Assembly (NCBI RefSeq): GCF_003334405.1
Contig: NZ_QOWM01000006.1
Length of the DNA stretch: 64,000 nt
Source: Escherichia coli
GTDB lineage: Bacteria; Pseudomonadota; Gammaproteobacteria; Enterobacterales; Enterobacteriaceae
Direction: 5' to 3' (one strand)
Shown: positions 52,802 to 57,961 of the stretch, piece by piece
How the letters are laid out: every line of letters starts with the position of its first letter
Numbering within the stretch: the stretch's first letter is position 1
Made by a program: the position numbers and the translations under genes
The notes under the pieces: model-generated
Database searches by the model: none
Seen by the model: the letters and a program-made list of their open reading frames with translations, nothing else
What the model was told of the DNA's origin: nothing

Positions 52802-55231
52802 GTGTCGTCGTTGCCCGTTGCTGCCGTCTTACCTGAATTACTTACCGCTCTCGATTGTGCGCCGCAGGTATTATTAAGTGCGCCGACCGGGGCCGGGAAA
52901 TCAACCTGGCTGCCGCTGCAACTGCTGGCGCATCCCGGCATTAACGGGAAAATTATCCTGCTGGAGCCGCGTCGTCTGGCGGCGCGTAACGTCGCGCAAC
53001 GGCTGGCGGAGCTGCTTAACGAAAAGCCAGGCGATACCGTTGGCTACCGGATGCGTGCGCAAAACTGCGTCGGGCCGAATACCCGCCTGGAAGTGGTTAC
53101 CGAAGGCGTGCTGACGCGCATGATCCAGCGTGACCCGGAACTGAGCGGTGTTGGACTGGTGATCCTTGATGAATTTCATGAGCGCAGCTTGCAGGCGGAT
53201 TTGGCGTTGGCGCTGTTACTCGATGTGCAACAAGGTCTGCGTGATGACCTTAAACTGCTGATTATGTCGGCTACCCTGGACAACGACCGCTTGCAGCAAA
53301 TGCTGCCAGAAGCGCCTGTCGTCATCTCAGAAGGGCGCTCGTTTCCGGTTGAACGCCGTTATTTACCGCTGCCCGCGCATCAGCGTTTTGACGATGCCGT
53401 TGCGGTAGCCACCGCTGAAATGCTGCGTCAGGAAAGCGGATCATTACTGTTATTTTTACCTGGCGTCGGAGAAATTCAGCGTGTGCAGGAACAACTGGCT
53501 TCGCGCATCGGCAGTGATGTATTGCTCTGCCCGCTGTATGGCGCGTTGTCGCTGAACGATCAGCGAAAAGCGATCCTCCCGGCACCGCAAGGGATGCGCA
53601 AAGTGGTGCTGGCGACCAATATTGCTGAAACCAGTTTAACCATTGAAGGTATTCGTCTGGTGGTGGATTGTGCCCAGGAGCGTGTGGCGCGTTTTGATCC
53701 GCGCACGGGGCTTACGCGACTGATTACTCAACGCGTTAGCCAGGCATCCATGACGCAGCGTGCCGGGCGCGCCGGGCGTCTGGAGCCGGGTATCAGCCTG
53801 CATTTAATCGCCAAAGAACAAGCAGAACGCGCCGCGGCGCAAAGTGAACCGGAGATCTTACAAAGCGATCTTTCCGGTTTGCTGATGGAATTACTGCAAT
53901 GGGGATGCAGCGATCCGGCGCAGATGAGCTGGCTGGATCAACCGCCAGTAGTGAATCTACTGGCCGCGAAACGTCTGTTACAAATGCTGGGGGCACTGGA
54001 GGGTGAACGGCTTAGTGCGCAAGGGCAAAAAATGGCAGCGCTGGGTAACGATCCGCGTTTAGCGGCAATGCTGGTTAGCGCGAAGAACGACGACGAAGCT
54101 GCTACCGCGGCAAAAATTGCCGCCATTCTCGAAGAGCCGCCACGGATGGGCAATAGTGACCTGGGCGTGGCGTTTTCGCGCAATCAACCAGCCTGGCAGC
54201 AACGTAGTCAGCAACTGTTAAAACGCTTAAACGTACGTGGCGGTGAGGCAGACAGTTCGCTTATCGCGCCGCTACTTGCCGGGGCGTTTGCCGATCGCAT
54301 TGCTCGTCGCCGTGGGCAAGATGGACGCTATCAACTGGCAAACGGCATGGGAGCGATGCTCGATGCCAACGACGCGCTAAGCCGCCACGAATGGTTGATC
54401 GCACCGTTATTATTGCAGGGCAGCGCCTCGCCGGATGCGCGGATTTTACTGGCGCTGCTGGTCGATATTGATGAGTTAGTACAACGCTGCTCGCAGCTGG
54501 TACAGCAGTCTGACACTGTGGAGTGGGATGACGCGCAAGGTACGCTGAAAGCCTGGCGTCGGCTACAAATCGGTCAGTTGACGGTGAAAGTGCAGCCGCT
54601 GGCGAAACCGTCAGAAGACGAGTTGCATCAGGCGATGCTTAATGGCATCCGTGATAAAGGTTTAAGCGTGCTCAACTGGACGGCGGAAGCGGAACAGCTA
54701 CGCTTGCGTTTGTTATGCGCCGCAAAGTGGTTGCCGGAATATGACTGGCCAGCGGTTGATGATGAAAGTTTATTGGCAGCGCTGGAAACGTGGCTGCTGC
54801 CACATATGACTGGCGTACATTCACTACGCGGCCTGAAATCACTCGACATTTATCAGGCACTACGCGGATTACTTGATTGGGGAATGCAGCAACGTCTGGA
54901 TAGTGAATTGCCTGCGCATTACACTGTGCCGACGGGAAGCCGGATCGCCATTCGTTATCATGAAGATAACCCGCCCGCGCTGGCGGTGAGAATGCAAGAG
55001 ATGTTTGGCGAGGCCACCAATCCGACGATCGCCCAGGGGCGCGTGCCGCTGGTGCTGGAGTTGCTTTCACCTGCCCAAAGGCCATTACAAATCACACGAG
55101 ATTTGAGCGCCTTCTGGAAAGGAGCGTACCGTGAGGTGCAAAAAGAGATGAAAGGGCGTTATCCCAAACATGTCTGGCCGGACGACCCGGCAAATACTGC
55201 ACCGACGCGACGGACGAAAAAGTATTCGTAA
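52802..55231 (+). CDS. hrpB: ATP-dependent RNA helicase HrpB (DEAH-box)
   Basis: Start placed at in-frame GTG (VSSLPVAAV.. read as MSSLPV); Walker A APTGAGKST and DEFHER motif present. Confidence 0.9.
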   Translation: MSSLPVAAVLPELLTALDCAPQVLLSAPTGAGKSTWLPLQLLAHPGINGKIILLEPRRLAARNVAQRLAELLNEKPGDTVGYRMRAQNCVGPNTRLEVVTEGVLTRMIQRDPELSGVGLVILDEFHERSLQADLALALLLDVQQGLRDDLKLLIMSATLDNDRLQQMLPEAPVVISEGRSFPVERRYLPLPAHQRFDDAVAVATAEMLRQESGSLLLFLPGVGEIQRVQEQLASRIGSDVLLCPLYGALSLNDQRKAILPAPQGMRKVVLATNIAETSLTIEGIRLVVDCAQERVARFDPRTGLTRLITQRVSQASMTQRAGRAGRLEPGISLHLIAKEQAERAAAQSEPEILQSDLSGLLMELLQWGCSDPAQMSWLDQPPVVNLLAAKRLLQMLGALEGERLSAQGQKMAALGNDPRLAAMLVSAKNDDEAATAAKIAAILEEPPRMGNSDLGVAFSRNQPAWQQRSQQLLKRLNVRGGEADSSLIAPLLAGAFADRIARRRGQDGRYQLANGMGAMLDANDALSRHEWLIAPLLLQGSASPDARILLALLVDIDELVQRCSQLVQQSDTVEWDDAQGTLKAWRRLQIGQLTVKVQPLAKPSEDELHQAMLNGIRDKGLSVLNWTAEAEQLRLRLLCAAKWLPEYDWPAVDDESLLAALETWLLPHMTGVHSLRGLKSLDIYQALRGLLDWGMQQRLDSELPAHYTVPTGSRIAIRYHEDNPPALAVRMQEMFGEATNPTIAQGRVPLVLELLSPAQRPLQITRDLSAFWKGAYREVQKEMKGRYPKHVWPDDPANTAPTRRTKKYS

Positions 55232-55243
55232 GGTTGGTTTTCT

Positions 55244-55328
55244 CCCTCTCCCTGTGGGAGAGGGCCGGGGTGAGGGCATCAGCGCGCACGTTCACCCTCA
55301 CCCTAACCCTCTCCCTCAAGGGAGAGGG
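55244..55328. repeat. Composite GC-rich palindromic element with three perfect 9-bp stems, between hrpB and mrcB
   Basis: ccctctccc-tgt-gggagaggg (55244-55264); gggtgaggg ... ccctcaccc (55268-55303); ccctctccc-tcaa-gggagaggg (55307-55328). Not a classical REP. Confidence 0.8.
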
Positions 55329-55426
55329 GACCGATCGAGCACAAATTTTGAGAGATATCTTCTTCTGTCTTGTAACAGAAGAACAGAAAATCGGGCTTTT
55401 GCGCCTGAATATTGCGGAGAAAAAGC

Positions 55427-57961
55427 ATGGCCGGGAATGACCGCGAGCCAATTGGACGCAAAGGGAAACCGACGCGTCCGGTCAAACAAAAGGTAAGCCG
55501 TCGTCGTTACGAAGATGACGATGATTACGACGATTATGATGACTATGAGGATGAAGAACCGATGCCGCGCAAAGGTAAGGGCAAAGGCAAAGGGCGTAAG
55601 CCTCGTGGCAAACGCGGCTGGCTATGGCTACTGCTAAAACTGGCTATCGTTTTTGCCGTGCTGATCGCCATTTACGGCGTTTATCTCGATCAAAAAATTC
55701 GTAGCCGTATTGATGGCAAGGTCTGGCAACTGCCTGCGGCAGTTTATGGCCGAATGGTCAATCTTGAGCCAGACATGACCATCAGCAAGAACGAGATGGT
55801 GAAGCTGCTGGAGGCGACCCAGTATCGTCAGGTGTCGAAAATGACCCGTCCTGGCGAATTTACCGTGCAGGCCAACAGCATTGAGATGATTCGCCGTCCG
55901 TTTGATTTCCCGGACAGTAAAGAAGGACAGGTGCGCGCGCGTCTGACCTTTGATGGCGATCATCTGGCGACGATCGTCAATATGGAGAACAACCGTCAGT
56001 TCGGTTTCTTCCGTCTTGATCCGCGTCTGATCACCATGATCTCTTCGCCAAACGGTGAGCAGCGTCTGTTTGTGCCGCGCAGTGGTTTCCCGGATTTGCT
56101 GGTGGATACTTTGCTGGCGACAGAAGACCGTCATTTTTACGAGCATGATGGAATCAGTCTCTACTCAATCGGACGTGCGGTGCTGGCAAACCTGACCGCC
56201 GGACGCACGGTACAGGGTGCGAGTACGCTGACGCAACAGCTGGTGAAAAACCTGTTCCTCTCCAGCGAGCGTTCTTACTGGCGTAAAGCGAACGAAGCTT
56301 ACATGGCGCTGATCATGGACGCGCGTTACAGCAAAGACCGTATTCTTGAGCTGTATATGAACGAGGTGTATCTCGGTCAGAGCGGCGACAACGAAATCCG
56401 CGGCTTCCCGCTGGCAAGCTTGTATTACTTTGGTCGCCCGGTAGAAGAGCTAAGCCTCGACCAGCAGGCGCTGTTAGTCGGTATGGTGAAAGGGGCGTCC
56501 ATCTACAACCCGTGGCGTAACCCAAAACTGGCGCTGGAGCGACGTAATCTGGTGCTGCGTCTGCTGCAACAGCAACAGATTATTGATCAAGAACTCTATG
56601 ACATGTTGAGTGCCCGTCCGCTGGGGGTTCAGCCGCGCGGTGGGGTGATCTCTCCTCAGCCAGCCTTTATGCAACTGGTGCGTCAGGAGCTGCAGGCAAA
56701 ACTGGGCGATAAGGTAAAAGATCTCTCCGGCGTGAAGATCTTCACTACCTTTGACTCGGTGGCCCAGGACGCGGCAGAAAAAGCCGCCGTGGAAGGCATT
56801 CCGGCACTGAAGAAACAGCGTAAGTTGAGCGATCTTGAAACTGCGATTGTGGTCGTCGACCGCTTTAGTGGTGAAGTTCGTGCGATGGTCGGAGGTTCTG
56901 AGCCGCAGTTTGCGGGCTACAACCGTGCGATGCAGGCGCGTCGTTCGATTGGTTCCCTTGCAAAACCAGCGACTTATCTGACGGCCTTAAGCCAGCCGAA
57001 AATCTATCGTCTGAATACGTGGATTGCGGATGCGCCAATTGCGCTGCGTCAGCCGAATGGCCAGGTCTGGTCACCGCAGAATGATGACCGTCGTTATAGC
57101 GAAAGCGGCAGAGTGATGCTGGTGGATGCGTTGACCCGTTCGATGAACGTGCCGACGGTAAATCTGGGGATGGCGCTGGGGCTGCCTGCGGTTACGGAGA
57201 CCTGGATTAAACTGGGCGTACCGAAAGATCAGTTGCATCCGGTTCCGGCAATGCTGCTGGGGGCGTTGAACTTAACGCCAATCGAAGTGGCGCAGGCATT
57301 CCAGACCATCGCCAGCGGTGGTAACCGTGCACCGCTTTCTGCGCTGCGTTCGGTAATCGCGGAAGATGGCAAAGTGCTGTATCAGAGCTTCCCGCAGGCG
57401 GAACGCGCTGTTCCGGCGCAGGCGGCGTATCTGACACTATGGACCATGCAGCAGGTGGTACAACGCGGTACGGGTCGTCAGCTTGGGGCGAAATACCCGA
57501 ACCTGCATCTGGCAGGGAAAACAGGGACTACCAACAATAACGTAGATACCTGGTTTGCGGGCATTGACGGCAGCACGGTGACCATCACCTGGGTCGGCCG
57601 TGATAACAACCAGCCGACCAAACTGTATGGTGCCAGCGGGGCAATGTCGATTTATCAGCGTTATCTGGCTAACCAGACGCCAACGCCGCTGAATCTTGTT
57701 CCGCCAGAAGATATTGCAGATATGGGCGTGGACTACGACGGCAACTTTGTTTGCAGCGGTGGCATGCGTATCTTGCCGGTCTGGACCAGCGATCCGCAAT
57801 CGCTGTGCCAGCAGAGCGAGATGCAGCAGCAGCCGTCAGGCAATCCGTTTGATCAGTCTTCTCAGCCGCAGCAACAGCCGCAACAGCAACCTGCTCAGCA
57901 AGAGCAGAAAGACAGCGACGGTGTAGCCGGTTGGATCAAGGATATGTTTGGTAGTAATTAA
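55427..57961 (+). CDS. mrcB: Penicillin-binding protein 1B (bifunctional glycosyltransferase/transpeptidase)
   Basis: Start placed at [13 protein letters not shown]..; internal Met (MPRKGKG, near 55562) corresponds to the known shorter isoform start. Confidence 0.95.

Follow-up and report, generated by a model that had tools for sequence, protein, structure and literature searches.

The charge-blocked cytoplasmic tail of Escherichia coli PBP1b: a conserved internal gamma start and a candidate spacer role for the acidic tract

Introduction

PBP1b, the product of mrcB (ponB), is one of the major synthases of the cell wall and is targeted by antibiotics. Its alpha and gamma isoforms have been described by Navarro/Vettiger et al. 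2026, and Met46 is the published start of gamma (PMC13423804). The internal site has also been located by retapamulin ribosome profiling (Ribo-RET), which recovered it in E. coli as one of three known positives (bioRxiv 10.1101/520783) and recovered the homologous mrcB site in Salmonella (PMC11005335). In the Salmonella paper the alpha extension is already characterised as disordered, with a basic stretch first and an acidic one after it.

The tail carried only by alpha was recently shown to decide whether PBP1b reinforces the division septum. As reported in PMC13423804 (2026), the alpha-only N-terminus (the first ~14 residues, R6 in particular) binds FtsA and directs PBP1b to the septum. In the same paper its first residues are predicted to sit in the FtsZ-binding pocket of FtsA, which is supported by assays, and the R6E substitution abolishes both septal recruitment and septal fortification. 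The authors describe the first 14 residues as conserved in enterobacteria, ask for further biochemical and structural validation of the FtsA interaction, and cite Chalut et al. 2001 for lysis protection being tied to the first six residues.

A sequence-only reading of DNA that carries this gene had pointed to the charge-segregated tail and called its role not well defined. This statement is largely outdated, because the alpha extension now has a role in FtsA-dependent septal recruitment (PMC13423804), but it stands for the acidic tract itself. None of the terms 'acidic', 'negatively charged' and 'linker' appears in PMC13423804, and our searches retrieved no published function for the tract; some deletions among the cytoplasmic-domain mutants of Chalut et al. 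2001 (J Bacteriol 183:200) may touch it. Here we describe the tail, its conservation and the internal start, and weigh the possible roles of the acidic tract.

Results

Identity of the gene and its locus

The window analysed is one stretch of 64,000 nucleotides, and all positions refer to it. The gene under study is the following reading frame:

55427-57961, + strand: mrcB (ponB), PBP1b alpha isoform, 844 residues plus stop (open reading frame, RefSeq start, PDB matches)

Comparison of the DNA and its translation identifies 55427-57961 (+), almost certainly, as E. coli mrcB/ponB, and the gene call made from the letters alone was right. Over the 469 bases that span the mrcB start, many complete E. 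coli chromosomes match the window with 100% identity, and on these RefSeq annotates the identical DNA as mrcB, 'bifunctional glycosyl transferase/transpeptidase', with the alpha start codon at the ATG equivalent to 55427. The gene is flanked by hrpB and fhuA, as seen both in the open reading frames of the window and in the RefSeq annotation, in the conserved order hrpB - mrcB - fhuA, and hrpB likewise lies upstream of mrcB in Pantoea-like loci.

At the protein level, the PBP1b chains of PDB entries 3VMA, 3FWL and 5FGZ are nearly identical to residues 53-804. Residues 1-52 are found in no PDB entry among the matches to the protein, the constructs beginning at residues 53-58. Within the first 250 residues Pfam detects PBP1_TM (1-79), UB2H (113-197) and Transgly (beginning at 209), so arranged that the order tail/transmembrane helix, UB2H, glycosyltransferase, transpeptidase is present, the remainder being covered by the full-length PDB match. 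Since the PBP1_TM family (PF14812, E = 1.2e-25) matches residues 1-79, the cytoplasmic tail belongs to an already catalogued family.

Architecture of the cytoplasmic tail

The tail and its surroundings are made up of the following elements:

55416-55419, + strand: GGAG, Shine-Dalgarno-like motif of the alpha start, 7 nt 5' of the ATG (read from the sequence)
55427-55468, + strand: N-pep, residues 1-14, alpha-only and near-invariant (87-sequence alignment; FtsA binding reported in PMC13423804)
55469-55510, + strand: remaining N-terminal basic block, residues 15-28, including R25-R26-R27 (charge, conservation)
55511-55558, + strand: acidic D/E/Y tract, E29-E44, net -13, with codon repeats of 9-nt period
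55565-55618, + strand: juxtamembrane Lys/Gly/Arg-rich basic patch, P47-G64, +10, partly a 6-nt-period repeat
55619-55681, + strand: transmembrane helix, W65 to about V85 (AF2 helix, Pfam PBP1_TM, PDB construct starts)

The 20 nt before the alpha start (...TTGCGGAGAAAAAGC) are the commonest form in Enterobacteriaceae loci, with a median anti-Shine-Dalgarno duplex of -6.6 kcal/mol. Downstream of it the charge is distributed in three blocks, a basic one of +8 in residues 1-28, an acidic one of -13 in residues 29-44 and a Lys/Gly/Arg-rich one of +10 in residues 45-64. The acidic block consists of 13 D/E and three Tyr (at 34, 37 and 40), with no other residue. With an assumed D+E frequency of 0.11, the probability of finding at least 13 acidic residues in 16 by chance is ~1.4e-10 per window of that length, or ~2e-4 expected occurrences per E. 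coli-sized proteome. The charge segregation of the whole tail, expressed as kappa, is 0.52, versus 0.13 ± 0.05 in shuffled tails, and was reached by 0 of 1000 shuffles. At the DNA level a period of 9/18 runs through the acidic tract (55507-55554) and a period of 6 through the basic one (55569-55593).

These data confirm the adjacent acidic and basic clusters that had been proposed to precede the transmembrane helix, and the peptide quoted for them corresponds exactly to R25-G64 (55499-55618). The description of a D/Y-rich tract of low complexity also holds; E29-E44 contains only D, E and Y, and its DNA is built of short codon repeats. The interval given for the feature, 55427-55600, correctly begins at the alpha start codon, but it ends at K58, 18 nt or six residues short of the peptide.

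AF2, run on the 87-sequence alignment, assigns no secondary structure to residues 1-63 (pLDDT 47-55) and a helix to residues 64-95 (pLDDT 80-93). The 64-residue cytoplasmic tail of PBP1b is thus predicted by the model to be disordered.

Conservation and distribution of the tail

The published conservation of N-pep is reproduced in our own alignment of 87 Enterobacterales sequences, in which no variation occurs at E7, P8, G10 and R11, while conservation reaches at least 90% at G3, D5, R6, I9, K12 and G13 and likewise at R25 and R26. The order of elements is also shared. It is seen in fragments from Salmonella, Klebsiella, Erwinia, Pantoea, Serratia, Yersinia, Sodalis, Providencia and Arsenophonus, each of which has a conserved MxGxDREPIGR peptide, then a basic run, a D/E/Y(F) tract whose length varies greatly, a Met or Val where the acidic residues give way to basic ones, a basic patch and the transmembrane helix.

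Within this frame the acidic tract is strict in composition. Among 80 Enterobacteriaceae species it is 9-19 residues long and 98% D/E/Y, with 6-16 acidic residues in every species, and Tyr makes up 210 of its 1228 residues; a Tyr (or Phe) is found every 3-4 residues and is conserved. The tract is longer in Yersinia-, Serratia- and Providencia-like proteins, and its whole range is 9 to about 40 residues. The basic patch has a net charge of +8 to +10 in all 80 Enterobacteriaceae species. Within E. coli, the tail DNA is at least 99% identical in 5093 of 5425 complete genomes and falls below this value in 332 (~6%), and the variants that we sampled are in-frame length alleles, lacking one D, one KG unit or one DDY unit.

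For an outgroup we took the best 150 representatives of 50%-identity PBP1b-family clusters, 141 of which have a recognisable membrane helix. An acidic segment was found in 0 of these 141 PBP1b-family representatives outside Enterobacterales (from the best 150; the 141 carry no taxonomic assignment), and their tails are purely basic and rich in K/R/S/T. The sequence-only reading had called the tail unusual, and this comparison bears it out. The absence of the tract from the 141 outgroup tails, together with its co-occurrence with N-pep, points to an Enterobacterales-specific insertion that travels with N-pep.

Internal start of the gamma isoform

The start of gamma lies at the boundary between the acidic tract and the basic patch:

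55547-55551, + strand: GAGGA, Shine-Dalgarno-like motif of the gamma start, codons E41-D42, with a GAGG-to-ATG gap of 11 nt
55562-55564, + strand: Met46 ATG, in-frame internal start of PBP1b gamma (sequence, conservation, literature)

That the internal Met matches the known short isoform of PBP1b had been proposed from the sequence, and it agrees with the published gamma start and with the Ribo-RET data in E. coli and Salmonella. The initiation-site mapping that the same reading had asked for is in fact already in print (Ribo-RET, bioRxiv 10.1101/520783; PMC11005335).

We followed both elements in a comparative set of 84 Enterobacterales loci, consisting of 80 Enterobacteriaceae species and 4 Pantoea-like loci. 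The codon equivalent to Met46 is ATG in 68 of the 80 Enterobacteriaceae loci, GTG in 8 and not a start codon in 4, and it is GTG in 4/4 Pantoea-like loci. Wherever this site encodes Val, the codon is GTG (12/12), versus a background GTG share of 0.57 among the Val codons of these genes; the statistics for GTG, like those for GAG below, are inflated by shared ancestry, and with ~6-7 independent lineages the P value for GTG is roughly 0.03. From this codon usage, GTG-only valine at the Met46 site would be a sign of a kept start, suggestive rather than decisive.

The motif upstream follows a similar pattern. The Glu codon at position -5 is GAG in 65 cases and GAA in 5, while the Glu codons at -3/-2 are GAA in 104 and GAG in 22, and it is this position-specific synonymous preference for GAG at codon -5 that yields the GAGGA motif at 55547-55551. 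Of the 80 loci with a start codon, 77 have GAGG no more than 21 nt before it, at -15 in 69 of them and shifted to -12 or -9 in the rest. In the four loci without a start codon (Kluyvera-type species and Pseudescherichia vulneris) GAGG is missing as well (4/4), while the acidic tract is retained. The start codon and the Shine-Dalgarno-like motif are therefore kept together and lost together, with GAGG in 77/80 loci that have the start and 0/4 that do not.

The 11-nt gap between GAGG and ATG exceeds the usual optimum, which counts against the assignment of GAGGA as the Shine-Dalgarno element of gamma. On balance, a gamma start at Met46 served by this element is very probable. Judged from these codon patterns, the last codons of the acidic tract appear to be dual-coded, for the protein and for the ribosome-binding site of gamma.

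RNA elements around the start

An mRNA hairpin that would hide the gamma Shine-Dalgarno motif was considered and rejected. In the minimum free energy fold of the E. coli mRNA (z = -2.55), CUAUGAGG is base-paired to CCUCGUGG in codons 59-61, but RNAalifold on 69 sequences did not recover the hairpin (consensus energy -6.5 kcal/mol). In the alignment 84% of the cells of this helix are paired, mostly as invariant or broken pairs, and double changes occur in only 2 pairs. The percentage paired is no better than in shuffles (46/500), and support from covariation is absent. An Rfam scan of 55150-55700 returned only sub-threshold look-alikes of microRNA hairpins, located on an upstream palindrome, and a promoter and terminator consensus scan of 55150-55650 found none.

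Discussion

A polyanionic spacer as the proposed role of the acidic tract

That the tail is charge-blocked and carries the gamma start is real, conserved and already described, and the original observation adds nothing to the picture of PBP1b. The comparative results provide modest new support on two points: the gamma start (ATG/GTG) and GAGG are co-conserved and co-lost across Enterobacterales, and retention of the acidic tract does not depend on the gamma start. Its presence in species without this start indicates that the tract is not there only to supply the Shine-Dalgarno motif, and such independent retention argues for a role at the protein level. The role of the tract is a narrow and well-defined follow-up for cell-division laboratories, and not a new kind of system.

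A single mRNA gives rise to two isoforms, alpha from 55427 and gamma from Met46 (55562), the latter very probably served by the Shine-Dalgarno-like GAGGA within the final codons of the acidic tract (E41-D42). N-pep (1-14) is present in alpha alone and is reported in PMC13423804 to bind FtsA and bring PBP1b to the septum. Both isoforms retain the Lys/Gly basic patch beside the membrane helix, which may act as a positive-inside anchor that binds anionic lipids. In the mechanism that we propose, the D/E/Y tract between N-pep and this patch may be a disordered, self-repelling polyanionic spacer, repelled by anionic lipids too, which would prevent the basic N-pep from collapsing onto the membrane and hold it within the reach of FtsA. 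The 3' codons of the tract would be doubly constrained, because they also form the ribosome-binding site of gamma.

The strict composition of the tract, its free length and sequence, its retention where the gamma start is missing and its co-occurrence with N-pep fit a spacer, as far as sequence comparison can tell. Based on this conservation pattern and on electrostatics, we put forward the spacer role itself tentatively, at slightly less than an even chance. The explanation as a whole (identity of the gene, gamma start with its Shine-Dalgarno element, and spacer) we consider likely, a judgement that blends the confidence in the separate steps.

Alternative explanations for the acidic tract

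The conserved, periodic Tyr residues are not needed by a pure charge spacer; they count against it and keep alive the alternative in which the acidic-aromatic tract is not a passive spacer but a motif with a specific binding or auto-regulatory function. Such a motif could dock on a basic partner, for which FtsN, through its basic cytoplasmic tail, and other surfaces of the divisome are candidates, or the tract could fold onto the flanking basic blocks and mask N-pep or the lipid-binding patch until needed. The periodic conservation of Tyr/Phe agrees with this, the alternation of +8/-13/+10 blocks with a kappa of 0.52 is of the kind expected to favour intramolecular compaction, and there is indirect evidence for a basic partner in that PBP1B is stimulated by FtsN of full length, including the cytoplasmic and transmembrane parts, in a manner not reported for soluble versions (review PMC4632607). 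However, the length (9 to about 40) and exact sequence of the tract vary more widely than is usual for a specific docking motif, AF2 shows no structure in it, and, in the passages of PMC13423804 consulted, FtsA is the only partner named from the AlphaFold-multimer screen with residues 1-60, its contact being mapped to the first residues, so that we regard a binding motif as unlikely. Less probable still is that the tract is a by-product of replication slippage in GAT/GAC/TAT repeats, tolerated in a disordered tail and having as its only function the ribosome-binding site of gamma. The 9/18-nt tandem periodicity, the in-frame length alleles of E. coli (minus one D, one KG unit or one DDY unit) and the large differences in tract length between genera would all be expected from slippage, but not a composition of 98% D/E/Y held over 80 species with always 6-16 acidic residues, nor the persistence of the tract in the four species from which the gamma start and GAGG are both missing, nor its strict co-occurrence with N-pep and its absence from the non-enterobacterial homologues (0/141, from the best 150).

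Two further proposals concern translation and modification. The tract could be an intrinsic-ribosome-destabilisation (IRD) sequence, on which some of the ribosomes making alpha would abort shortly ahead of the gamma start; in that case the alpha:gamma ratio would depend on Mg2+ or ribosome stability, with re-initiation at Met46 being possible. The tract does have the run of D/E with a proline, 13 of 16 residues followed by P45 directly 5' of Met46. D/E/P-rich stretches are documented to cause IRD, which becomes stronger at low Mg2+ and when bL31 is lost (bioRxiv 10.1101/2021.02.02.429294), and EttA assists the translation of early acidic residues (PMC11282234). According to the same two papers, however, IRD is counteracted by 20-30 residues in the exit tunnel and by bulky residues near the peptidyl-transferase centre, and both of these features apply here, because codon 29 is the first of the tract and Tyr residues interrupt it; a largely empty tunnel, a position in the first ~10-20 codons and small neighbours are not what the mrcB tract offers. 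In addition, neither paper mentions mrcB or PBP1b, and the tract is kept in species without the gamma start, which makes this role very improbable. As a documented property of mrcB, IRD was rejected, since it is absent from the IRD and EttA papers and their rules on position and bulkiness oppose it. A combined version, in which the tract is a protein spacer for N-pep-FtsA and at the same time a partly suppressed ribosome-destabilising nascent chain before the gamma start, is just as doubtful; if it were true, weak 70S ribosomes (low Mg2+, loss of bL31 or EttA) would shift the output from septum-targeted alpha to general gamma. Finally, the Tyr residues could be phosphorylated by tyrosine kinases such as Wzc or Etk, tuning PBP1b alpha. 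Their sequence context, flanked by D/E, is what speaks for this, but in several Enterobacterales tails they are replaced by Phe, Leu, Ile or Val, and a full-text literature search for phosphotyrosine in E. coli mrcB gave nothing relevant, so we consider phosphorylation extremely improbable.

Comparison with known systems

The closest system is E. coli PBP1b alpha/gamma itself (mrcB/ponB; PF14812), from which the present locus does not differ: it is the same gene, with identical DNA and the gamma start at Met46. Two other systems resemble single aspects of the tract and of the tail. Like the mrcB tract, MgtL-type IRD sequences have a D/E-rich run followed by a proline, but the mrcB tract begins at codon 29, beyond the first ~10-20 codons, and includes the bulky Tyr. 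In Gram-positive class A PBPs whose cytoplasmic N-termini bind GpsB, an extended cytoplasmic tail likewise recruits a synthase to the division site, a comparison drawn by the authors of PMC13423804 themselves; in contrast with PBP1b alpha, the partner of these tails is GpsB and not FtsA, and no sequence homology between them was found.

As for the use of an internal start, mrcB is like infB and clpB of E. coli, in which one mRNA also carries an internal in-frame start with a Shine-Dalgarno-like element, and the three genes were detected together by Ribo-RET. Unlike in infB and clpB, the two products of mrcB differ only by a disordered cytoplasmic extension of 45 residues, which alters localisation and not a folded domain.

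The gamma start and the charged N-terminal tail

In four of the compared mrcB loci (L069, L077, L078 and L081), which belong to Pseudescherichia vulneris, Kluyvera spp. and one gut MAG, the position of Met46, the internal start of the PBP1b gamma isoform, is neither ATG nor GTG, and the Shine-Dalgarno-like GAGG upstream of it is also absent (region equivalent to 55540-55570). All four nevertheless retain both charged segments, the acidic tract as well as the basic patch. Judged from these sequences, the organisms concerned probably produce the long PBP1b isoform only, in which case they would serve as natural gamma-less controls.

Both low-complexity tracts of mrcB (equivalent to 55511-55595) have in-frame length alleles in five loci from E. 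coli and close Escherichia (L086, L087, L088, L006 and L007). The allele types of the tail lack one Asp, one Lys-Gly unit, both of these, or one Asp-Asp-Tyr unit. Over this stretch, about 6% of the complete genomes of E. coli do not match the allele of the window.

Downstream of the gamma start, a short run of codons includes a rare Pro codon, CCT, which is kept across most Enterobacteriaceae:

55598-55609 (+), AAG CCT CGT GGC, encoding K58-G61, in the mrcB coding sequence

The CCUC in this segment is complementary to the GAGG about 50 nt upstream, and the two are paired in the predicted fold of the E. coli mRNA (z = -2.55). Covariation of this pairing was looked for in aligned relatives, and none was found.

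Overlapping frame and start-site annotation

The same region is also open in a second frame:

55514-55636 (+), overlapping stretch of 40 codons in the +1 frame relative to mrcB

Seven out-of-frame ATGs in this stretch arise from GAT-GAN codons of mrcB, and several database protein fragments (P0012, P0034 and P0058) are frameshift hybrids of mrcB and its +1 frame. The overlapping stretch most likely arises as a side effect of the repeated codons.

Automated annotation of the mrcB start is inconsistent because calls differ between a TTG that precedes the annotated ATG by five codons (stretch 55412-55426), as in the mechanical ORF list, the annotated ATG itself, and Met46, which is taken as the gene start in some database calls (P0025, P0029).

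C-terminal tail and upstream spacer

Two further features lie towards the end of the gene and in front of it:

57839-57958 (+), Gln/Pro-rich low-complexity C-terminus of PBP1b, residues 805-844
55232-55341 (core 55244-55328), imperfect GC-rich palindrome of about 85 nt, in the hrpB-mrcB intergenic spacer

Residues 805-844, like residues 1-52, are in no solved structure; all of the structures stop at residue 804.

The palindrome has arms of 27 nt each with 81% complementarity. By sequence comparison of 5426 complete E. coli genomes, about 35% are without it in this spacer; it was counted as present at a query coverage of at least 80% (3539/5426 genomes), and the remaining matches begin at query base 111. 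It also occurs elsewhere in E. coli genomes, at a median of 2 and a maximum of 6 places per genome. A search of Rfam returned no family match for the palindrome. It may resemble a Box C-type intergenic repeat.
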